From assembly GCA_964487395.1 (NCBI GenBank), contig CAZAQH010000002.1, forward strand, positions 864-64,863: a stretch of 64,000 nt of DNA, written 5' to 3'. Source of the stretch: an uncultured Lachnospiraceae bacterium (GTDB lineage Bacteria > Bacillota > Clostridia > Lachnospirales > Lachnospiraceae). The notes under the pieces were generated by a model. It had not been told where the DNA came from, made no database searches, and worked only from the letters and a program-made list of their open reading frames with translations. Shown piece by piece: positions 15,613-46,257 of this stretch. Made by a program: the position numbers and the translations under genes. Numbering within the stretch: the first letter of the stretch is position 1; every line of letters starts with the position of its first letter.

Positions 15613-15714
15613 TCCTCTTATTGTTCGACTTTTTCGCTCAGGTTGGCACCTTCCAATTATGGGGTTGCCGTGGCTTCACAGGTCCTATGTACCTCCACCA
15701 CTCTGAATAAGAGA
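15613..15714 (-). promoter_or_regulatory. SAM-I (S-box) riboswitch aptamer in the metK leader
   Basis: The minus strand reads CUCUUAUUCAGAGUGGUGGAGGUACAUAGGACCUGUGAAGCCACGGCAACCCCAUAAUUGGAAGGUGCCAACCUGAGCGAAAAAGUCGAACAAUAAGAG. The P1 pairing (CUCUUAUU / AAUAAGAG) and the conserved GGUGGAGG, GAAGCC.CGGCAACC and GGUGCCAA blocks match the S-box consensus as I recall it. Confidence 0.9.
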
Positions 15715-34383: not shown

Positions 34384-37300
34384 TTACAAAGATGAATGAA
34401 GAAGTCTGCTGATTTCCTGTAAATCGTTAATGCAGACTTTTTCTTTTTTTCTGTCGTAAGTAAGCAAACCGTTTATCTCATCTTCAACGTCGCTTAACTG
34501 CGTATAAACGCAACCGCATAATCCCTTAGGGATAGCCGGAATAATCATTTCCTTGTACATACTTATCATTTTCTTAGTCACATCTTTTTCACTTTCACAA
34601 TTTCCATAACCATAATGAGTGTATTTACTGTAAAAATGGCCAGGTATTGCAAAGGAATATCCGCCGCATTCAGACACAAGGGTTGGTTTGTGATGTGATA
34701 CCGGAACCTTCTTGTTATTATAATAAATATGGAGACTTTTTACTTCTGTCTTTTTTCCAAAAAACCATCCTGATGTTGTGTCAATAATTCTGGTGGTGTC
34801 TTTGGATTTTATGGTCTCATACATTGCATCACTGTCAAACTGTCCCCAGCCTTCATTAAAAATTGTGTAGTAAACAATACATGGGTGGTTATAAAGTGTT
34901 TCAACTGTTGCAATGCTGTGTTTTACAAAAATTCTTTTTCTTTTCTTATTACCGTTAAAGCGATGGTCGTTACGATGAAATTTACCAAGGTAAGGCATTG
35001 CGGTGTCTCTAAAAAAGGAATAATGCCCATTATTGACCATATCCTGCATTACAAGCATTCCCAGTCTGTCACATGCATAGTAGAATGCCTCCGGTTCAAT
35101 TTTAATATGCTTCCTGAGTGTATTAAATCCCATTTTCTTCATTGCAAGAATATCTTCTTCATACGACTTCTCACATGCCGGTGTATAGATTCCATCACTG
35201 AAATAACCCTGATCCAAAACTCCATGAAGAAAAATTGGTTCACCATTTAAGCAGATACGTTGTTGTCCTTTTATATCTTTAATCTCAATTGTACGTAATG
35301 CGAAGTAGGAATTGACCTTATCCTCTCCTGCTGATATCTGAATCGAATACAAATGTGGGGAATCCGGCGTCCACAATTCAGGCTTGTATTCTTTACCAAG
35401 CTTTTTCATTTCCTCTACCAAATCAATGCGGAATTCTTCATCATAACTCATTGCTGTTATGGTATCGCCCTCTATCGGAATTGTCACATAAACAGGAACT
35501 GGAGATGTCCTATTAACTTTGAGTGTAATCCCTGTTTTATATGGTGTTATTTTAATATTCTTAATATAATCTTCCGGCACACTTTCAAGCCACACCGACT
35601 GCCAGATACCGCTTATCGGTGTGTACCACATTCCACCGCGTTTCCTGCATTGTTTTCCGTATGGATAATTCTCTGAAAGTAAATCAATAACCTTAACTTC
35701 CAGAATGTTTTCCATATTGTCATTTTTTAAATAATCAGTTATGTCAACTTCGAAAGGGAGATAGCCACCTTCATGTTTTGTTAATAATGTATCATTCAAA
35801 AAAATCTCGGCAATCTGATCCACTGCTCCAAAATGAAGCAACACTCTGCCTTTTATAAAATCCTCTGGAATGGTAAAACTCTTTATGTAATGCAGATGGA
35901 AGCCTGTAAATTTATGATATCCCGATAAAATAGACTGTGGTGCAAACGGAACTCTTATTGTATTCCGGTTCAACTGCCATTCACCATTTAATGATATGTA
36001 GGAATTACGCTTCATCTGCGGTCTCGGATAAGCCTTCCACGGCTGCTCACCGTTATTCCATTTATCGAGACATTTTTCTCCAAGGTCTGTCATTAAATCA
36101 TGATGTCCATGTCGAATCATTTCAAAAATTCCACCAAGGACAAATAAAAGGACAATGGCTGCCACAAATGCAGCTGCATATATATTATGATTAGGAATAA
36201 AGGATGTGGTTCCGTCACTATTTTGAATCGTCTTTGCATTTTTTAGAACTGCTGCCCCAATTGCCGGTCCGACAATACCCGGAATAAATACCTGTCCAAA
36301 TATACGAAGGCCCTGAAAAAGCCCAGCTTTTTCCCTTGGAATGTTGTCACGAATCATTGCTCCAAAAATAGCCATGCCTGTTAAATAACCTGTCATCATA
36401 AAAAGGGAACCAGCAAAAACCGAAATGGTATTGGTAAAAAAGAATAAAAAGAAATATCCGACCATCAACATGATTATCGTCAGAAGCACTGACATTCGAA
36501 ATCCCACCATGTCATATAATTTCCCGTAAAAAGCGGTAATCACAGATGCCAGAATAATAGCAGGTGCCATAATAAGTACATAATTGTTAAGTCCTAAGCT
36601 CACCTCATAATAAAGAATCAGATATGGCATAAAAATCTGAATCGAAATTCCAAATACTGCAAAGGCAAGCACGACCATATAAAGCAGTTTATGATTTTTA
36701 AAGACGCTTGGACGAAAACTGTAAATAAGATTCTTAAAGTAGCTTTTATTTTCATCCGATGCCACTGCATGATCTTCCATTAGAAAAATACATAGAATAC
36801 CGATTAAAATTACTGAAATACCTATAATCAGAAAAATGGTGATCCAGCTTTTCTGTAACTCCAGATTAAAAGCCATAAAACCACCAAAGACAACTAATAT
36901 AGCAACTAAAGGCATCATGGAATTGATGCCTTCTATTTTTCCTCTGTTCGTGTCATCTCCACTATCCGTAAGCCATGCATTGAAGCAGGCATCATTAGCG
37001 GATGACCCAAAGAAAGTCATGACACAGTCTAACAGTATAACAAGTGAAATACCTAAAGATGCAGCCTCAATTACGGAGCCTGTCAATTTTTCAAGTATAT
37101 CCATTCGAATCAATGCAAAGGACAGAATCGAGATACCCCAGACGATATATCCCCCGCAAACAAATATTTTTCTTTTTCCAATTTTATCAGAAAGCGCTCC
37201 TATAAGCAGAGTAGTAAGGGTAGCCGCTACTGCACTTGCTCCAACCATAAGTGATATATCTGCTGCACTTGCATGAAACATTTTATAGAGAAAAACATTA

Positions 37301-37392
37301 AAATACATATTCTCCACTACCCATGCAATCTGTCCAATCAAGCTTAAAATCACCATGGTAATCCAGAATTTCTTTCCCAATTTTGTCTGCAT
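34384..37392 (-). CDS. fusion protein: 12-TM MFS/GPH-like transporter (N-terminal, about nt 36076-37392) plus glycoside hydrolase family 2 enzyme (C-terminal, about nt 34387-36075)
   Basis: Single 1002-aa ORF. I count 12 hydrophobic helices in aa 1-435. Then come a GH2 sugar-binding domain (LNGEWQL...FGAVDQIAEIFLNDTLLTKHEGGYLPFEVDITDYL) and a TIM barrel with candidate acid/base (IFNEGWG) and nucleophile (LVSECGGYS) glutamates. Confidence 0.8.
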   Translation of the reverse strand: MQTKLGKKFWITMVILSLIGQIAWVVENMYFNVFLYKMFHASAADISLMVGASAVAATLTTLLIGALSDKIGKRKIFVCGGYIVWGISILSFALIRMDILEKLTGSVIEAASLGISLVILLDCVMTFFGSSANDACFNAWLTDSGDDTNRGKIEGINSMMPLVAILVVFGGFMAFNLELQKSWITIFLIIGISVILIGILCIFLMEDHAVASDENKSYFKNLIYSFRPSVFKNHKLLYMVVLAFAVFGISIQIFMPYLILYYEVSLGLNNYVLIMAPAIILASVITAFYGKLYDMVGFRMSVLLTIIMLMVGYFFLFFFTNTISVFAGSLFMMTGYLTGMAIFGAMIRDNIPREKAGLFQGLRIFGQVFIPGIVGPAIGAAVLKNAKTIQNSDGTTSFIPNHNIYAAAFVAAIVLLFVLGGIFEMIRHGHHDLMTDLGEKCLDKWNNGEQPWKAYPRPQMKRNSYISLNGEWQLNRNTIRVPFAPQSILSGYHKFTGFHLHYIKSFTIPEDFIKGRVLLHFGAVDQIAEIFLNDTLLTKHEGGYLPFEVDITDYLKNDNMENILEVKVIDLLSENYPYGKQCRKRGGMWYTPISGIWQSVWLESVPEDYIKNIKITPYKTGITLKVNRTSPVPVYVTIPIEGDTITAMSYDEEFRIDLVEEMKKLGKEYKPELWTPDSPHLYSIQISAGEDKVNSYFALRTIEIKDIKGQQRICLNGEPIFLHGVLDQGYFSDGIYTPACEKSYEEDILAMKKMGFNTLRKHIKIEPEAFYYACDRLGMLVMQDMVNNGHYSFFRDTAMPYLGKFHRNDHRFNGNKKRKRIFVKHSIATVETLYNHPCIVYYTIFNEGWGQFDSDAMYETIKSKDTTRIIDTTSGWFFGKKTEVKSLHIYYNNKKVPVSHHKPTLVSECGGYSFAIPGHFYSKYTHYGYGNCESEKDVTKKMISMYKEMIIPAIPKGLCGCVYTQLSDVEDEINGLLTYDRKKEKVCINDLQEISRLLHSSL

Positions 37393-38476: not shown

Positions 38477-39058
38477 CTATATGTTGCTAATAAATATTTC
38501 CAAACCAATTATAATCAGTATTACCCCACCCAGAATGGCTGCCTTATTTGATAATTCTGTTCCAAGTTTTTTACCAATTGCCAAGCCCGCCATACAGATG
38601 ATAAATGTAATAATTGCAATAATGAATGCACAAATAAGTGCCATACCACAATTATAATTAGCTATTGTAAAACCAACCGAAAGTGCATCAATAGAAGTTG
38701 CAACTCCTTGTACCAGCAATGCCGATAATGTCACTTCACATATATCTTTTTTTTCATCCTTGTGTCGAATTCCCTCAAGTAGCATTTTACCACCAATGTA
38801 ACATAACAGAATAAGTGCAATCCAGGGAACTAATTTTTCAAAGGATTCAAAGACACGCATAATTGTATGTACGCATATCCACCCAATCATTGGCATAAGT
38901 GCCTGAAATCCCGCAAAAACACCGGCAATTCCACACATTCTTTTTCTCTTCATCTCTGGTTCATTCAAGCCATTTGCAAGTGAAACAGAAAATGCATCCA
39001 TTGCAAGACCAATCCCAAGTAATACGCTGTTAAAAAAGAACAATAAATTCCACTCCAT
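38477..39058 (-). CDS. mntP: manganese efflux pump MntP
   Basis: GLAMDAFSVS and SIDALSVG motifs. Start set to MEWNLLFFF at 39058 (AGAGG RBS); the track start at 39130 would overlap the upstream gene. Confidence 0.8.
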   Translation of the reverse strand: MEWNLLFFFNSVLLGIGLAMDAFSVSLANGLNEPEMKRKRMCGIAGVFAGFQALMPMIGWICVHTIMRVFESFEKLVPWIALILLCYIGGKMLLEGIRHKDEKKDICEVTLSALLVQGVATSIDALSVGFTIANYNCGMALICAFIIAIITFIICMAGLAIGKKLGTELSNKAAILGGVILIIIGLEIFISNI

Positions 39059-39126
39059 ACACTGACCTCTATAATATTTATTATATAAAATATGAAATAT
39101 GATGATACCTAATAATAACTTTTTTG

Positions 39127-41742
39127 TCAATATAGGAACCGCTCTCTGAATTCCTCCAACGTTTTTCTGATTTCTACTTCAAGTTCTCTTGATGATATCA
39201 ATTGGCAGCCCTGTCCGCGGATGATAATCTGTTCCAGTCCATCTGATGTTGCCACTGTAATATCATAATTTTTTGCATTTTCATGTGTAAAACGCTCAAT
39301 GTACTGGTCTGCTGTTTCTGCCTCTTTTGTATAAACAACATGAATATTCTGGTATGTTAATATTTCTGTTTTATGTCCTTGTATACGGTATGCATCAAAT
39401 ACTAAAATCAAATTACAACCTTTAATCGATTGGTAATTACTCAGTATGTCCATAAGTTGTCCGCGGGCACCATCAATATTAATGTCTGCCAATTCCTTTA
39501 ATTCTTTCCATGCAAATATAACATTATAGCCATCTACCAGCAGGTACTTATCCTTTTTGGGGCTTGGCTGGTAAACGCGTGTTGTAGAATCCGCTGTTCT
39601 GTTTTTTTCCGCTGCCGTTACTTTTCTTTTTGCTGAAATTCCTTTATGGGAAATAGGCTGACTTTTCTTATTGGCATAAAACGTTCTCTGTAAAATACTA
39701 TCTATTTCCTCTAAATCAATTGTCTGCTGTAAAGACGACATATCACGCATGCGTTCTCTTTTTTGTTTTTCCCTTATTGCCTGCTCCTCTAATGTCAGTT
39801 CTGAAGACTCATCATTTTCACTGCTGTTTTCTATTATACATGGCAAATGAGCATAATCCATTACCTGATCCCAGGGTACAATAACGCCTGCACCATGCGT
39901 ACAGAACACAGAGCCTGTCGGATTATCCAAATCCGCTTCCGGATCATAAGTAACACCTTCTAAAATTTCCTCTTCATTATGACAAGGTTCATAGCCTGCC
40001 ATAGAACAAGATAATTTTCCATGTCCCTTTGAATAGGATAGCACTTCTGTAATATATCCACGCATCGTAACAACCGGTGCTTTTCCTGTTAATGTCGTAA
40101 ACCCATCCGTGACGGATTCGATTGCAGAAGTCCCATACATTTTATCAATGTCATTCATGGCTCTTCCCACCATATTATCTGGTATCTCCAGGCGATATGC
40201 ATAAACCGGCTCTAATAATCTGACATATGCCTGCATTAGGCCCTGTCTGATTGCACGGTAAGTAGCCTGTCTAAAATCTCCGCCTTCTGTATGCTTCGTA
40301 TGTGCACGCCCGTTTATAAGAGTAATACGCATATCCGTAATCGGACTGCCTGTCAGTACTCCCATATGTTCTTTTTCTTTTAAATGTGTAAGAATCAGTC
40401 TCTGCCAATTTCTATCCAAAACATCCTCACTGCACTGTGTATCAAACTGCAACCCACTTCCAGGTTCACCCGGTTCCATTTTTAAATGTACCTCAGCATA
40501 ATGGCGAAGCGGTTCAAAATGTCCTACTCCCTCTACTGTATTACATATCGTTTCTTTATATAGAATATTACCCTCTGCAAAAGATATTTTTACACCAAAA
40601 CGTTCTAGAACCATGCGTTTGATGATTTCCGTCTGTACCTCACCCATAAGTTTAATATGAATTTCTTTTTCTGATTCTTTGTATGCAATCTGTAATTCCG
40701 GTATTTCCTCTTCTAATTGACGAAGCTTCGGTAAAAGCATCAAAACATCCATATCGTCTAAAATTTCAATCTTATAAGACAGGACGGGTTCTAAAATCGG
40801 ATTACCTGACTCCGGTTCCATGCCAAGTCCCTGTCCCGGATGTGTTTTTATCAGTCCTGTCAGTGCACAGACCATTCCTGCCATAACTTCCTGTACAATT
40901 TCAAATTTTTCTCCAGAGTATACACGTATCTGATTGACTTTTTCTTCGCCAATAATATCCTTTACTTTAAGCTTCCCACCAGTTATTTTTAAATAGGTCA
41001 GGCGGTTTCCCTGTTCATCCCTTGCAATTTTAAATACTTTGGCACCAAACTCATCAGAATACCGGATTACCTTACTATATCTGTCTATTCCCGTCAAAAA
41101 TTTCTCAACACCCGATACCTTTAAAGCAGATCCAAAATAACAAGGGAACAATTTACGTTTCCAAATCAATTCTTGTATCTCTTCGTCCGAAATCTTTCCA
41201 CTTTTCAAGAAATGGTCTAACACTTGTTCGTCACACATAGCAATATTTTCAAAAAGTACCGTTTCTTCCTGTTCCGTAAAATCTATACAGGAGCCCGCTA
41301 ACTGCTGATTGATTTTTTTTAATATTAATGTCTTATCTGTATCCGGCTGATCCATTTTATTAATAAAAAGAAATACCGGAATACGATATTTCTTTAATAA
41401 ATCCCATAAAGTTCTGGTATGACTCTGCACGCCATCCGTGGCACTTATTACCAAAATAGCAGCATCAAGCACCTGCAGAGTTCGTTCCATCTCCGCTGAA
41501 AAGTCAATATGACCCGGTGTATCTAATAATGTAATCCGTGTATTTGAGAAATTGAACATAGCCTGCTTGGAAAAAATGGTAATCCCACGTTCTCTTTCCA
41601 TTTCATTGTGGTCTAAAAAAGCATCTTTTGCATCAACTCTGCCCAATTTGCGAATTTCACCGCTGACATACAGCATTGCTTCTGATAATGTAGTTTTTCC
41701 GGCATCCACGCTTGCAAGTATACCTGCCACTAATTGATTCAT
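39127..41742 (-). CDS. fusion protein: Tet(M)/EF-G-like translational GTPase (aa 1 to about 640) plus YacP/Rae1-like NYN ribonuclease domain (aa 732-871, nt 39130-39549)
   Basis: Single 871-aa ORF. G1 is ASVDAGKTT, G3 is DTPGH and G4 is NKMD, and the protein is colinear with Tet(M) through domains II-V. After a charged linker, the C-terminus reads KYLLVDGYNVIFAW...LVFDAY...KEAETADQYIE...VATSDGLEQ, matching B. subtilis YacP as I recall it. Confidence 0.8.
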   Translation of the reverse strand: MNQLVAGILASVDAGKTTLSEAMLYVSGEIRKLGRVDAKDAFLDHNEMERERGITIFSKQAMFNFSNTRITLLDTPGHIDFSAEMERTLQVLDAAILVISATDGVQSHTRTLWDLLKKYRIPVFLFINKMDQPDTDKTLILKKINQQLAGSCIDFTEQEETVLFENIAMCDEQVLDHFLKSGKISDEEIQELIWKRKLFPCYFGSALKVSGVEKFLTGIDRYSKVIRYSDEFGAKVFKIARDEQGNRLTYLKITGGKLKVKDIIGEEKVNQIRVYSGEKFEIVQEVMAGMVCALTGLIKTHPGQGLGMEPESGNPILEPVLSYKIEILDDMDVLMLLPKLRQLEEEIPELQIAYKESEKEIHIKLMGEVQTEIIKRMVLERFGVKISFAEGNILYKETICNTVEGVGHFEPLRHYAEVHLKMEPGEPGSGLQFDTQCSEDVLDRNWQRLILTHLKEKEHMGVLTGSPITDMRITLINGRAHTKHTEGGDFRQATYRAIRQGLMQAYVRLLEPVYAYRLEIPDNMVGRAMNDIDKMYGTSAIESVTDGFTTLTGKAPVVTMRGYITEVLSYSKGHGKLSCSMAGYEPCHNEEEILEGVTYDPEADLDNPTGSVFCTHGAGVIVPWDQVMDYAHLPCIIENSSENDESSELTLEEQAIREKQKRERMRDMSSLQQTIDLEEIDSILQRTFYANKKSQPISHKGISAKRKVTAAEKNRTADSTTRVYQPSPKKDKYLLVDGYNVIFAWKELKELADINIDGARGQLMDILSNYQSIKGCNLILVFDAYRIQGHKTEILTYQNIHVVYTKEAETADQYIERFTHENAKNYDITVATSDGLEQIIIRGQGCQLISSRELEVEIRKTLEEFRERFLY

Positions 41743-41868
41743 AGTCTTCTCTTTCTATATCTTAATCTTATCCTAGTGTATCATACTTTATTTTTATATA
41801 GTAAATATTTTATTACATTTTACATATAACTATTTTCGTATTAAAATGCCAATGGAGGGAGTATAAAC

Positions 41869-42456
41869 ATGAATACAAAAAAAGATAAAAAAATATTATG
41901 GACTTTATTCCGTTCTATGTTTATATTAAGTGCCTGCACCTTTGGCGGAGGTTTTGTAATTGTTTCTTTAATGAAGAAAAGATTTGTGGAAGAATTAAAC
42001 TGGATGGACGAAGATGAGATGTTAGATATTACAGCTATTACACAATCCTCCCCCGGACCGCTTCCAGTAAATGCCTCTGTTATTATTGGATATCGTATGT
42101 ATGGCGTAGTGGGTTCTTTGGTTGCAATTTTAGGAACCATTCTTCCACCTATGATTATTATTTCAATTATTTTCGTTTTCTATAATGAGTTTCGCACTAA
42201 CCGTTATATTGCCATTGCCCTGCAGGTTATGCGTGCCGGTGTTGCGGCTGTTATTTTTGATGTGACCATTAATCTTGCAAAAAATGTATGTAAAACACGG
42301 CGTGTTTTATACATTGCCATGATGGTTATATCCTTTGTTTGTGTCGTATTCTTTTCGGTCAGTGCAATGTATATCATTTTAAGTTGTCTGCTTATCGGCA
42401 TTATTGATCTTCTCTTTAGTCTTAGAAAAGAGAAAGGAGGTAACTCCTCATGTTGA
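41869..42456 (+). CDS. chrA: chromate transporter family protein (short-chain CHR, first half)
   Basis: 195 aa with the CTFGGGFV motif; paired with and overlapping the next gene. Confidence 0.8.
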   Translation: MNTKKDKKILWTLFRSMFILSACTFGGGFVIVSLMKKRFVEELNWMDEDEMLDITAITQSSPGPLPVNASVIIGYRMYGVVGSLVAILGTILPPMIIISIIFVFYNEFRTNRYIAIALQVMRAGVAAVIFDVTINLAKNVCKTRRVLYIAMMVISFVCVVFFSVSAMYIILSCLLIGIIDLLFSLRKEKGGNSSC

Positions 42457-43013
42457 TTCTTCAATTATTTTTAAGTTTTATACAGGTCGGTTTATTCAGC
42501 ATTGGTGGTGGATATGCCGCCATTCCTCTTATACAGGATCAGATAGTAAATAAGCATGAGTTGCTTACTCTTGCAGAGTTTAGTGACTTAATTACGATAG
42601 CTGAAATGACACCAGGACCCATTTCCATTAACTCCTCTACCTTTGTTGGTATGCGTCTATCCGGTCCATTTGGTGCCGTCATATGTACATTAGGCTGTAT
42701 TATTCCGTCCTTTATTATATGCCTGACGCTCGCTCATTTTTATTATAAATACCGCAATTTTGCCGGAGTACAGAAGTTACTTGCCTCTCTGCGTCCTGCC
42801 GTTGTTGCGTTAATCGGTTCTGCCGGACTCTCCATTTTATTATTAGGATTATTTCAATCTGATTTATGGCACGTAAAATTAGACAATTTTCATGTGATTG
42901 AAGGTATTTTATTTGCCGGATGCTTATTTATATTACGGAAATGGAAAGCAAACGCCATTTCCATTATCTTAGGAAGTGGCGTTGTCGGTACTGTTCTTTA
43001 TTTGATTTTTTAG
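42450..43013 (+). CDS. chrA: chromate transporter family protein (short-chain CHR, second half)
   Basis: 187 aa with the SIGGGYAAIP motif. It overlaps the previous gene by 7 nt, the typical split-CHR pair. Confidence 0.8.
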   Translation: MLILQLFLSFIQVGLFSIGGGYAAIPLIQDQIVNKHELLTLAEFSDLITIAEMTPGPISINSSTFVGMRLSGPFGAVICTLGCIIPSFIICLTLAHFYYKYRNFAGVQKLLASLRPAVVALIGSAGLSILLLGLFQSDLWHVKLDNFHVIEGILFAGCLFILRKWKANAISIILGSGVVGTVLYLIF

Positions 43014-43684
43014 AATCTTACTTCTTCATCATGCGATAATAGAGATAATTGTTGGATGTAGGACTTCGCTGATAGTTGCTCTAATAATTCCTGCTCCTGT
43101 TTGGTATGTATTTCTAAAATAATATCGCAACCTGTCTTTTTTCTATTTCTTGACATTATTTTAAAATGCTTGGAATACGTTTTGATATTCTGTATAATCT
43201 CATCTTCATTTATATTTGTATCACAGTTTAAAACAAGCAAATATGGTTTTTTCGTTTCCGGTAAATATTCTAAAACAAATATTCCAATTGTCACCATCAA
43301 TGCGACTATAAGAGCAATTTCAAATAATCCGGCTCCACAGATTATTCCTGTTCCGATTGACCAAAATAAAAACAGTAAATCCATAGGGTCTTTTATTGCT
43401 GTTCTAAAACGTACAATAGAAAGTGCACCAACCATACCAAGTGATATTACAATGCTTGATTGCATTGCGACAATAATACCTGCTGTAATTACTGCAATAA
43501 TCGCCATTGATACATGAAAGCTTTTATTATAAAAAGCACTTCTTGTAACAAGTTTGTAGATGAAATAAATATACAACGCAATTAAAAATGTAACTCCAAG
43601 TGTTAAAATAATCTGAATTGTTGAAATATCTGTGTTTGAAAATCCCTCTAAAACTGATTTTTTTATCGTATCTGTAATTGACAT
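43010..43684 (-). CDS. DUF4956 family membrane protein
   Basis: 224 aa with about four TM helices, the family-typical block LSIVRFRTAIKDPMDLLFLFWSIG, and a C-terminal soluble domain of about 80 aa. Confidence 0.75.
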   Translation of the reverse strand: MSITDTIKKSVLEGFSNTDISTIQIILTLGVTFLIALYIYFIYKLVTRSAFYNKSFHVSMAIIAVITAGIIVAMQSSIVISLGMVGALSIVRFRTAIKDPMDLLFLFWSIGTGIICGAGLFEIALIVALMVTIGIFVLEYLPETKKPYLLVLNCDTNINEDEIIQNIKTYSKHFKIMSRNRKKTGCDIILEIHTKQEQELLEQLSAKSYIQQLSLLSHDEEVRF

Positions 43685-43696
43685 ATAAGTGACTCC

Positions 43697-44380
43697 CTAT
43701 TCTATATTTTGATTAACTCTTGCATAATAATATTTTGAATATGATGTTCTCTGTAAGGTTCCTGTATTTAAGATTTTTCTGATATAATCCGGCAGAAATT
43801 CATCATATTTTACCTCAAGTATATGCTGACCGGAAGGTAAAACCGGAATACCAGGAAGTACCTCGTCCCAAAAAGTCTCTGCCTCACAGGTTCCGCTTAT
43901 ATTCTTATCAAATGTAATTCGTACATTGCCCATTGGTTCTACAAAAGCAGTTCTCTCATATTCCACAATACACTTTGGCGATAACATACGCGTAGATGCC
44001 TGAACATACAATTTCTTTTTTAAAAATCCATCTTCCTTATTCATATCCGGAATTTCTCCACGAATATATTTCATACAGTCATCTAATGAAATTCTCTCGG
44101 ATCTTTTACTTGTGTATCCACGTGTTTTGCTTTTCTGTTCAAGTTGAATCAGCGACTTATCATTATTATAAGTTCGTATTCGAAACTTTTCACGTTCATC
44201 AGTACCTATTTCATTATCACAAAGACACGAATCGCACATGTCATCAAAGTAAACACTTCGAATTAAATAGGCATCTTCTTCTATATGTGAATCGTGTTTC
44301 ATGTAACTTTGCAGTTCTGATTGCAAACACACTATCTGTGCATCTGTCACTATGTATTTATCTTCTACACGATATTCCAT
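43697..44380 (-). CDS. VTC-domain (polyphosphate polymerase / triphosphate-tunnel) protein
   Basis: 227 aa with no TM or signal segment. N-terminal tunnel-type motif (YRVEDKY) and alternating basic/acidic beta-strand motifs (FRIRTY, ILEVKY) as in the VTC/CYTH fold. Confidence 0.7.
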   Translation of the reverse strand: MEYRVEDKYIVTDAQIVCLQSELQSYMKHDSHIEEDAYLIRSVYFDDMCDSCLCDNEIGTDEREKFRIRTYNNDKSLIQLEQKSKTRGYTSKRSERISLDDCMKYIRGEIPDMNKEDGFLKKKLYVQASTRMLSPKCIVEYERTAFVEPMGNVRITFDKNISGTCEAETFWDEVLPGIPVLPSGQHILEVKYDEFLPDYIRKILNTGTLQRTSYSKYYYARVNQNIE

Positions 44381-44409
44381 GCATTTCTCCTATATTTATT
44401 TTCTGATAA

Positions 44410-46257
44410 CTACGGCTGCTTGTAAACAAATACTGTTTCTTCTTTTATCAGTAAATTCTCCGTTGTCTGTTGTCCCGTAATTTCCTCACACCATATACTA
44501 TCAGAGACATCCTGCACAACAGGTAACTCACCTATGGCTTTTCCATCTTCTATGTAACGCACCTCATATACAAAATCATCTTTCATGAACTTAACAATAT
44601 GATGTTCCTGGTCGTCTATCCACACTGAATCAAGAAATTGCTTTCTTTTTTCTATGAAATCCGTAAGTTCTTTAAAACTTGTCTCTCTGTCTGTAAAATA
44701 AGGATTGCTCTCATACTCTTCCTGCCATCTGATATAATCCATATCGGCAGATTTATTTAGCATCTCTTTATAATAATTAATTTCCTCTGTCGACTGCTTC
44801 ATAAGATATGGAGCCACTCTATCCTCGTAATAGTCTATGATTAAATCATAAAATTCTTCTTTTTCGTATAATGCATCAAACCAGTTCGTAGAAAAATCAT
44901 GTACGGATAATTTACTGATGCCTTCCGGATCAGAGGAAAAATATTCCATCCATTCAAGATAATTGCCAAAAGTCATATCAAAGTCCCAGCCGGGGCCTGC
45001 AAATATATGTCCGTTTATTGTATCCGAATCCTTGTAAAAAAAAGAACTCGAAACACCTGCATCATAATTTTTACTTACTTCTTCAGTTAGATATTTTTTA
45101 ACAAAAGATTCTATATCTATGTATTCTGTATATTTTTTCCCTGTAGCAGAATTAATTCCGTCTTCTGCTAATATGGCTTCTTCCACTTCATTACAATATC
45201 CTGAAATATAATCAATCTGTTCCACGGAACAAAATCCCGGCGATTTTACAATGAAATGTTCACTATGATTTGTCACAAAACTACTTGGAGTTTCTTCATA
45301 TTCCAGATGATAACGATCTCCAAATTCACGCTCTATTAAATAGCCACCGGTAATATCACTTGGCAAAACATCCAGAACTTTAGCTTTTTTATTACCTGTT
45401 TTATAAGTTGCAAATGAATTGTAATCATATTTATTATAGATTTGGTTCATCTGCTCTTCTAAGTTAGTAATCGCAATCCGCTGTGGTCCAATCTCAATTT
45501 GGTCACAGAGATAATAATTACCCTGATATTCACCATTTATATACAAATCTACAAATTGCCCTCTGCCTGTATGTAAAACACCTAACTCTTCTTCCATTCC
45601 TTTTACAATATCATTACGAATCAAGGTTGGGTCCGATGCATTAGCTACCAGAACATAATCTTTTCCTACCGGCAGTCCAAGCAGGGAATGCTCTGTTTTG
45701 ATAGAAATAGTGAAGGGTTTTTTCTCATAATTATTCCAGGAATAATTGCCTCTACCCTTAATAAAATCAAGTCCTGTATTATAGTCAGTCTCACCTTCAG
45801 CGGTCTTTACACTAATCTTTCCATTTTCTTTATTATTCTTGTCGGCAAGAATATTCGTAAGGCCACCGGAATCCGTTGTAATAAACACAGATGGTAGATT
45901 TTCGGACTTCATAATATATAAAACAAAGGATGTTCCATCTTTTTTAAATGTACAATTTATCTCTTTATTTATTGGCAGATTAGCAAGCGACGTTTTATGT
46001 TTAATTAATTCACCACGATCCGTTATCGTAAATTTGTCCGAATAATTGGTTAAATGCATATCTGCTAACTCTGCATATGAAGGCAAAAATAAATAATATG
46101 TACCGTCTTTTTCCCATGTATCTATTGTCTCGTCCTTAATTGAGAAATAAAGAGTCTTTTGACCGGAGGCCAGACTATCACGATTATCGACCATTATTAT
46201 TACAATAAGCCCGATAACGGATAGAAGAATTAAAAAACCTTTAAAAATATTTCGCAT
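44410..46257 (-). CDS. CotH kinase family protein with an N-terminal signal anchor
   Basis: 615 aa. N-terminus MRNIFKGFLILLSVIGLIVIIMV, then a CotH-like core (KGRGNYSWNNYEKKPFTISI, LRNDIV, YINGEYQGNYYLCDQIE, WDFDMTFGN). Confidence 0.75.
   Translation of the reverse strand: MRNIFKGFLILLSVIGLIVIIMVDNRDSLASGQKTLYFSIKDETIDTWEKDGTYYLFLPSYAELADMHLTNYSDKFTITDRGELIKHKTSLANLPINKEINCTFKKDGTSFVLYIMKSENLPSVFITTDSGGLTNILADKNNKENGKISVKTAEGETDYNTGLDFIKGRGNYSWNNYEKKPFTISIKTEHSLLGLPVGKDYVLVANASDPTLIRNDIVKGMEEELGVLHTGRGQFVDLYINGEYQGNYYLCDQIEIGPQRIAITNLEEQMNQIYNKYDYNSFATYKTGNKKAKVLDVLPSDITGGYLIEREFGDRYHLEYEETPSSFVTNHSEHFIVKSPGFCSVEQIDYISGYCNEVEEAILAEDGINSATGKKYTEYIDIESFVKKYLTEEVSKNYDAGVSSSFFYKDSDTINGHIFAGPGWDFDMTFGNYLEWMEYFSSDPEGISKLSVHDFSTNWFDALYEKEEFYDLIIDYYEDRVAPYLMKQSTEEINYYKEMLNKSADMDYIRWQEEYESNPYFTDRETSFKELTDFIEKRKQFLDSVWIDDQEHHIVKFMKDDFVYEVRYIEDGKAIGELPVVQDVSDSIWCEEITGQQTTENLLIKEETVFVYKQP

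Follow-up and report, generated by a model that had tools for sequence, protein, structure and literature searches.

The 64,000-nucleotide window analyzed here, a stretch of contig CAZAQH010000002.1 from an uncultured Lachnospiraceae bacterium, encodes on its reverse strand a translational GTPase of the EF-G/Tet type that is fused to a C-terminal endoribonuclease domain of the Rae1/YacP type. The fusion is read from a single uninterrupted open reading frame (ORF; 39127..41742, −, stop codon included), which starts with ATG and specifies 871 amino acids, and the protein is a further member of a known clostridial fusion family. Residue numbers refer to this protein and nucleotide positions to the window. 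The best hypothesis suggested by the sequence is that the GTPase tethers a ribosome-dependent nuclease. An earlier note, made from the DNA letters, had proposed the same ORF and the same pair of modules. A Pfam scan agrees with it, finding GTP_EFTU, EF-G_D2, EFG_III, EFG_IV, EFG_C and NYN_YacP, and the motifs quoted in the note are present (ASVDAGKTT, DTPGH, NKMD, KVFKIARDEQGNRLTYLKITGG, LLEPVYAYRLEIP and LLVDGYN...VFDAY...ETAD...ATSDG).

Domain architecture of the fusion protein

Relatives were collected from 1.84 billion representatives at 50% identity, which were searched exhaustively, and the best 150 matches, down to 42% identity, were taken. The G domain and the NYN domain occur together in 145 of these 150, which corresponds to at least 145 clusters at 50% identity. 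The nuclease domain comprises residues 732-871 (39130..39549, −). It matches the Pfam NYN_YacP profile over residues 734-867 (E value 1.3e-46; 159.1 bits against a gathering cutoff of 24.6), and the C-terminal 140 residues align to the crystal structures of Bacillus subtilis YacP/Rae1 (5mq8 and 5mq9; E value 2.3e-22). In the alignment, D7, D53, D81 and D104 of Rae1 correspond to D737, D783, D812 and D834, and the four active-site aspartates are conserved in 144 to 145 of the 145 representatives. The D7N D81N double mutant of Rae1 is catalytically dead (PMC10351889). The profile match and the aligned aspartates bear out the acidic nuclease site that had been read from the letters. Sequence identity of the fused NYN domain to B. 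subtilis Rae1 is 41-47%. To a metagenomic stand-alone YacP it is 52%, with the tail motif included, and the named close relatives of that YacP belong to Lachnospiraceae.

An AlphaFold2 (AF2) model was built from the 150-sequence alignment with a mean predicted local distance difference test score (pLDDT) of 81, compared with only 57 from an earlier 13-sequence alignment. The block means of the NYN domain are mostly between 69 and 92 but drop to about 39 over the final few residues. The model displays the five-domain EF-G fold, with Foldseek E values of about 1e-49 to structures of the EF-G family, and Tet(M) (3j9y) is colinear with residues 6-586 (E value 1.4e-71). The G domain (residues 6-222; 41077..41727, −; Pfam GTP_EFTU, E value 1.4e-50) is followed by domain II (residues 232-297; 40852..41049, −; Pfam EF-G_D2), a predicted β-barrel with a pLDDT of about 90. 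Domain III (residues 318-388; 40579..40791, −) narrowly misses the Pfam EFG_III cutoff with 26.2 bits against 27, and its fold is supported by AF2 and Foldseek. Domain IV (residues 392-505; 40228..40569, −; Pfam EFG_IV, E value 1.8e-19) and domain V (residues 508-590; 39973..40221, −; Pfam EFG_C, E value 4.5e-16) complete the module. The nucleotide-binding elements are present (G1, D13-G15-K16-T17; G2, T55; G3, D74-T75-P76-G77-H78; G4, N128-K129-x-D131), and the G1-G4 residues, together with the catalytic His78, are invariant in family alignments of 32 to 150 members.

The tip of domain IV has a sequence of its own. Loop I (about residues 404-420) reads GVGHFEPLRHYAEVHL, compared with YTIHIEVPPNPFWASIGL in Tet(M) and GKFSRQSGGRGQYGDVHI in EF-G, and the second tip loop (residues 478-492) reads GRAHTKHTEGGDFRQ. 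Loop III is NGRAHTKHTEGGDFRQ here, YGLYYSPVSTPADFRM in Tet(M) and DGSYHDVDSSEMAFKI in EF-G. The EF-G loop motifs SGGRGQYG and GSYHDVDSS are absent: loop I of the window protein is GHFEPLRHYAEV, and loop III shares with EF-G, the flanking Gly aside, only a His (H481). The score against the EF-G equivalog model TIGR00484 is also below its cutoff (272.9 bits against 659.4). Because eight family-specific residues at the tip (G405, H408, E410, P411, L412, H414, H484 and D489) are invariant, they argue for a specific and conserved interaction that domain IV may make at the decoding center.

The likeness to Tet(M) raises the alternative that the protein protects ribosomes from tetracycline or another A-site antibiotic, with the nuclease as an accessory to resistance, an idea put forward by Atkinson 2015 (PMC4342817). 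The best full-length matches among NCBIfam models and PDB entries are indeed of the Tet type (tet_protect, 413.6 bits; Tet(M) 3j9y, as above), and several NCBI records name members of the family as TetM/TetW/TetO/TetS proteins. However, 413.6 bits is far under the curated cutoff of tet_protect (NF012153; 775), and the subtype models of ribosomal protection proteins (RPPs) are missed by wide margins (M/W, 275.7 against 1100; Tet(M), 241.8 against 1420; Otr(A), 293.9 against 900). Domains IV and V, scored alone, do at least as well with EF-G. Loop III of Tet(M), which displaces tetracycline and is rated its functionally most important element (PMC4750697), is replaced: GRAHTKHTEGG stands in place of GLYYSPVST, the motif L505-Y-Y-S508-P509-V510 is missing, and YGLYYSPVSTPADFR aligns to NGRAHTKHTEGGDFR. 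The gene also has neither a mobile context nor a leader attenuator, and it is broadly distributed in Clostridia with inheritance that looks vertical. Because the scores fall under the curated cutoffs and the loop III motif is replaced, the protein is, judged by its sequence, not a bona fide RPP, and we consider the resistance explanation distinctly unlikely. The description of the GTPase as Tet(M)-like in the earlier note thus stands for the five-domain fold and the colinearity over residues 6-586; it does not extend to the curated RPP cutoffs, all of which are missed, or to the tetracycline-displacing loop.

Domain V is followed by a C-terminal mini-domain of about 45 residues (591-635; 39838..39972, −), which is delimited by the AF2 model, by conservation and by the end point of unfused sister GTPases. 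It is predicted to consist of a helix, a β-hairpin (611-622) and a short helix (627-630), with block-mean pLDDT values of 67-84 over residues 591-640 and minima at 611-620 and 631-640. The motif CHN...YD...D..NPTGSVFCxHGAG..VxW..V..YMH is kept, and a PDB sequence search with the mini-domain gave no significant match. In RPPs of the Tet(M)/Tet(O) type, a C-terminal extension with a short helix is required for activity. The short helix here (WDQVMDYAH) resembles by eye the C-terminus of Tet(M) (...IDKVRYMF), but no significant sequence match was found. A zinc site in the mini-domain was considered and rejected: the two Cys residues, C587 and C614, are conserved, whereas the His positions are not constant (Ruminococcus albus, Eubacterium eligens, Neobacillus).

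The unfused sisters stop right after the mini-domain (Neobacillus, 648 amino acids; a Clostridiales metagenome-assembled genome (MAG), 655 amino acids), and these proteins of about 650 amino acids carry the name 'translation factor GTPase family protein'. In a crude neighbor-joining tree, the two unfused sisters are placed outside the fused clade, and three short representatives nest within it; the latter are probably truncations or secondary losses. Since the sisters end at the mini-domain and branch outside the fused clade, the added module is the linker together with the nuclease.

The charged linker noted earlier was recovered at about residues 636-731 (about 96 amino acids, predicted disordered). 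Among the 150 members its length varies from 67 to 133 amino acids, and its layout of an acidic part, a helix and a basic stretch is conserved. The first part of the linker (residues 636-671; 39730..39837, −) is variable, acidic and predicted to be disordered; in the alignment, the acidic part (residues 633-676) spans 24-78 amino acids with a median net charge of −3 and AF2 block-mean pLDDT values of 46-64. The conserved linker helix (residues 672-691; 39670..39729, −), delimited by column counts in the 150 sequences, has the consensus E-(W/F)-I-(G/D)-x-E-E-I-D-x-I-(L/I)-x-x-T-(F/Y)-(Y/H)-A-N, with E679 invariant and I683, T687 and N691 conserved to at least 94%. AF2 confidence is low over the whole linker; the helix is predicted at residues 677-688, likewise with low confidence, and no packing on another domain was seen in the model. 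The basic second part (residues 692-731; 39550..39669, −), which abuts the nuclease, corresponds to a stretch of 27-42 amino acids with a net positive charge in every one of the 150 members (median +6.5). A PDB sequence search with the linker and its helix returned no significant match. The conservation of a helix that lacks a confident intramolecular placement suggests a partner-binding motif, for which the ribosome would be the obvious candidate.

Family, distribution and genomic context

The fusion family is large and old. Match 150 of the exhaustive search still scores 671 bits, so the family is larger than the 150 best representatives. In two word-indexed searches, the best 120 matches of each were all full-length fusions with PF05991, and the full architecture occurs in more than 240 clusters at 90% identity. 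Some of the 90% clusters hold hundreds to thousands of sequences, metagenomic in origin, and single clusters reach 4351. The fusion is present in the finished genomes of E. rectale ATCC 33656, Clostridium thermocellum ATCC 27405 and Desulfitobacterium hafniense Y51. Further named hosts (Kineothrix, Anaerostipes, Herbinix, Anaerosporobacter, Clostridium magnum, [Clostridium] cellulosi and Alkalicella) belong with them to several families of Clostridia, and MAG hosts include Blautia, Acetatifactor, Pseudobutyrivibrio and Oscillospiraceae. A scan of a genome collection with the pattern [LI]DTPGHxDF, which also matches EF-G everywhere, returned about 17 fusions among 80 loci. The crude neighbor-joining tree is consistent with a single origin of the fusion, which looks vertically inherited and broad across Clostridia. 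A contig titled Barnesiella intestinihominis (a Bacteroidota bin) carries a full-length fusion with 48% identity; it is probably mis-binned, every other host being a member of Clostridia.

This distribution also disposes of the explanation that two separate genes were joined into one ORF by faulty assembly or gene calling. Nothing was found in its favor, although a few short representatives (616-651 amino acids) and one with an odd C-terminus occur in the databases. The identical 871-residue protein, with the same neighbors, is encoded on an independent ENA contig, and the full architecture recurs in 145 of the best 150 clusters at 50% identity, in the 90% clusters and in finished genomes. The artefact is ruled out on these grounds, its probability being practically negligible, and the fused ORF is genuine. 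Two GTPase relatives without an NYN domain end differently: P0245 (873 amino acids, the odd C-terminus mentioned above) carries an Aminotran_4 domain at its C-terminus, and P0176 (914 amino acids) has about 260 C-terminal residues without a Pfam match. These ends may be gene-call artefacts or alternative fusions.

The architecture was already known, and the novelty implied in the earlier note has to be corrected. Atkinson 2015 (BMC Genomics 16:78; PMC4342817) recorded a 'Tet-NYN_YacP' fusion in ten clostridial genomes and suggested testing its RNase activity. The members in Additional file 8 of that study include R. albus, E. rectale, E. eligens, Butyrivibrio proteoclasticus, C. cellulolyticum, C. 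lentocellum, L. phytofermentans, C. thermocellum and D. hafniense. Matelska et al. 2017 (NAR 45:6995; PMC5499597) likewise listed a TetM-like-NYN_YacP fusion in some Clostridia and left its role open. Literature searches found no experimental study of any fusion member, so the note was right that the function is not experimentally described in the literature searched. The window protein has the features of this clostridial family: GTP_EFTU, EFG_IV and EFG_C followed by NYN_YacP, together with GHFEPLRHYAEVHL and KHTEGGDFRQATYRA.

Several members (P0038, P0080, P0311, P0326, P0331, P0362 and P0379) are labeled 'TetM/TetW/TetO/TetS family tetracycline resistance ribosomal protection protein' by NCBI. 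Such labels on fusion proteins are probably over-annotation, a judgement based on curated RPP models scored on the window protein alone, and they can inflate resistome counts.

The gene is chromosomal and its context is not conserved. It is flanked by genes for MntP, a Na/Ca exchanger, an MFS-GH2 fusion, a ZIP transporter, two chromate-transporter proteins and a DUF4956/VTC/CotH trio, with no mobile-element genes among them, and its GC content matches that of the rest of the window; the ordinary transporter flanks and non-mobile location described earlier are thereby confirmed. In other genomes the neighborhoods vary, with neighbors of housekeeping or transport function. These observations bear on the possibility that the protein is a stress-induced or anti-phage toxin that shuts off translation by non-specific RNA cleavage on ribosomes. 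Ribosome-dependent nucleases exist (RelE-type toxins and defense nucleases), and Tetreault et al. raise, as a speculation, that phage mRNA could be a target of collision nucleases (PMC13622287). Against a toxin, the PADLOC defense models gave no match, the neighborhood contains no antitoxin-like or defense-island genes, the family is widely conserved in Clostridia and the GC content is host-like. We regard a shut-off toxin as very unlikely.

The gene is preceded by an AT-rich spacer of 126 nt (41743..41868, −), which separates it from the divergent chromate-transporter genes and contains a purine-rich ribosome-binding site. Only weak σ70-like matches are found in the spacer, and no leader ORF or peptide, attenuator or Rfam element was detected there. 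A tet(M)-style upstream attenuator was rejected, the spacer being only 126 nt long and without a terminator-like element. Downstream, mntP starts about 68 nt past the fusion stop (39058-39130, −), and a near-consensus σ70-like site, TTGACA-17-TATCAT (11/12), begins just inside the final codon and stop codon of the fusion ORF and reaches into the gap ahead of mntP. Rfam detected no yybP-ykoY Mn riboswitch upstream of mntP; the only Rfam match in the window is a SAM (S-box) riboswitch (15615-15713, −; 75.3 bits). The MFS-GH2 gene (34384-37392, −) encodes an unusual transporter-glycosidase fusion of 1002 amino acids, with MFS_1 at residues 29-376 and GH2 domains at 461-890, and is also found on an independent ENA contig (L001 7442-10450). 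The trio of DUF4956, VTC domain and CotH kinase-like genes (43010-46257, −) adjoins two divergent chromate-transporter half-genes (41869-43013).

No stand-alone Rae1 was found in the window or in the fusion loci examined. Stand-alone yacP genes were recovered from metagenomes with a start-codon-anchored DNA pattern, and their close relatives in Lachnospiraceae include Lacrimispora spp., Mobilisporobacter, Anaeromicropila and Anaerolentibacter; among the hosts that could be named, no species is common to stand-alone YacP and the fusion. The canonical cysE-cysS-mrnC-rlmB-yacP-sigH operon holds the stand-alone gene in GCA_949414755.1 (locus L206, an abundant cluster) and was also seen in locus L195. 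In GCA_949414755.1 (L206 1-8525), a MutS2 gene (MutS_V and Smr) is located 1.8 kb downstream of yacP, so the genes for two proposed collision responders are close to one another in this genome.

Proposed action at stalled or collided ribosomes

The nuclease partner sets the frame for any functional reading. Rae1 cleaves only during translation, at stalled or collided ribosomes, and associates with ribosomes transiently (PMC12407103, PMC13622287). Tetreault et al. 2026 (PMC13622287) showed that Rae1 makes substrates for transfer-messenger RNA (tmRNA) on collided ribosomes, which ties it to trans-translation, and noted that, the association being transient, there is no structure of ribosome-bound Rae1. 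The earlier note had taken cleavage in the ribosomal A site as established; this view has been revised by Deves et al., and Tetreault et al. 2026 (PMC13622287) points to collided ribosomes instead. Because this premise has been revised, delivery of the nuclease to the A site is no longer the natural model for the fusion. Conversely, the fact that Rae1 works on ribosomes yet associates with them only transiently provides a rationale for a covalently attached ribosome-binding module. The A-site action of Rae1 goes back to a docking model of 2017.

In the proposed mechanism, to which we give roughly even chances, a Rae1-type nuclease is brought to stalled ribosomes by its own GTPase and feeds ribosome rescue. 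The EF-G/Tet-type module would occupy the factor site, either on a stalled ribosome or on the trailing ribosome in a collision, where domain IV would read the decoding center of a ribosome in a particular stalled state. The docked GTPase would raise the local concentration of the nuclease or license it, and the flexible linker would give the Rae1 domain access to mRNA on the exit side, on the entry side or in the gap between two ribosomes. The NYN nuclease would then cut mRNA on or beside the docked ribosome; the precedent of Rae1 suggests that it would do so behind a stalled ribosome, at its trailing edge, or in the stretch of mRNA that separates collided ribosomes. The shortened mRNA would enter tmRNA-type rescue (trans-translation) and mRNA decay, and the factor would be released when GTP is hydrolyzed at the sarcin-ricin loop. 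The fusion would thus be a Rae1 with a built-in ribosome-state sensor. On a trailing ribosome, the factor site lies close to the mRNA entry and hence close to the exit of the leading ribosome, which makes the collision model attractive.

A more specific proposal, put forward tentatively and expected to fail somewhat more readily than to hold, is that the protein is the first bacterial example of a translational GTPase directly licensing an mRNA endonuclease: the domain IV tip would sense a specific stalled or collided state, the Rae1 domain would sit on mRNA between ribosomes or on the exit side, and the timing of cleavage and release would be set by GTP hydrolysis. If true, the fusion would be a one-polypeptide bacterial counterpart of eukaryotic no-go decay and could expose how stand-alone Rae1 recognizes ribosomes.

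Several points weigh against the idea of a GTPase-tethered rescue nuclease. That the protein binds ribosomes and is active as a GTPase and as a nuclease is inferred, as is its substrate, whether mRNA or rRNA. The AF2 model places neither the NYN domain nor the linker helix confidently. The unfused sisters share the domain IV motifs without a nuclease, so the GTPase also serves a function independent of the nuclease. Furthermore, the window protein covers only positions 1-136 of the 166 in the NYN_YacP profile and is without the YacP tail of about 30 C-terminal residues. A tail of more than 20 residues, which resembles that of stand-alone YacP, is present in 119 of the 150 relatives; the window protein and those most closely related to it, 15 of the 150 in all, are without it. 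Because the representatives P0002, P0005 and P0007 share the same end point, the missing tail is a feature of the clade rather than a truncation.

The substrate is also where a second functional explanation enters, according to which the target is rRNA and the protein is a maturation, quality-control or decay factor whose GTPase sets the NYN nuclease on 16S or 23S rRNA. Nob1, a eukaryotic PIN nuclease that acts in 80S-like particles with the GTPase eIF5B, offers an analogy. The factor site, as established for the binding of EF-G and Tet proteins, adjoins functionally critical rRNA, and the basic segment of the linker could bind rRNA. YacP was first predicted to process rRNA or tRNA from its operon with mini-RNase III and RlmB (PMC5499597), and this operon was confirmed in L206. 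On the other hand, the fused domain is close kin of Rae1/YacP (41-52% identity), and there is no direct evidence of rRNA cleavage by any YacP protein. We place an rRNA-directed role on the unlikely side.

How Rae1 finds stalled or collided ribosomes is a question that the fusion family could help to answer: joined to a factor-site GTPase, Rae1 could yield a stable complex, trappable with guanosine 5´-(β,γ-imido)triphosphate (GDPNP), in which cryo-electron microscopy would show the position of the nuclease. Members of the family abound in Clostridia of the human gut and the rumen, and the family may therefore be a major route of ribosome quality control in the microbiome. Given the current interest in Rae1 and in collision rescue, the fusion is a good experimental lead.

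Comparison with known systems

The closest known systems are the fusions recorded by Atkinson 2015 and Matelska et al. 2017, which have the same architecture as the window protein and share with it the family motifs GHFEPLRHYAEVHL, KHTEGGDFRQATYRA and LLVDGYN. The window protein differs in belonging to a sub-clade (P0002-P0009, 64-75% identity) that is without the YacP tail. The loops, linker and mini-domain were not analyzed in either study, and neither includes experiments. Among unfused proteins, the GTPase of Neobacillus cucumis (L018 5144-7090) is 42% identical over 642 amino acids, with the domain IV motifs and the mini-domain in common. Both this protein and the Clostridiales sister are also under the RPP cutoffs, and, unlike the window protein, they have neither an NYN domain nor an adjoining NYN gene.

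Tet(M) and Tet(O) share with the window protein the five-domain EF-G-like GTPase, colinear over residues 6-586. The window protein differs from them in the loop I and loop III motifs of domain IV, in the added mini-domain, linker and nuclease, and in its chromosomal location off mobile elements. Its attenuator-free spacer is likewise unlike the regulation of inducible tet(M) and ABC-F resistance genes. B. subtilis Rae1 (5MQ8/5MQ9) has the NYN_YacP domain and the same four acidic residues in common with the fusion. However, Rae1 is a stand-alone protein of about 170 amino acids encoded in the cysS-mrnC-rlmB-yacP-sigH operon, whereas the window domain forms the C-terminus of an 871-residue GTPase encoded elsewhere, follows a conserved helix and a basic tether, and has no C-terminal tail.

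We know of no bacterial nuclease that is covalently joined to a translational GTPase and has a demonstrated function, and the remaining parallels are functional analogies only. In Hbs1-Dom34, a translational GTPase delivers a rescue module to the ribosome, which is the likeness to the window protein. SmrB of Escherichia coli and Cue2/NONU-1 of eukaryotes cleave mRNA at stalled or collided ribosomes, and SmrB and Cue2 are discussed as collision nucleases in PMC13622287; these enzymes have the SMR fold, which is unrelated to the NYN domain of the window protein.

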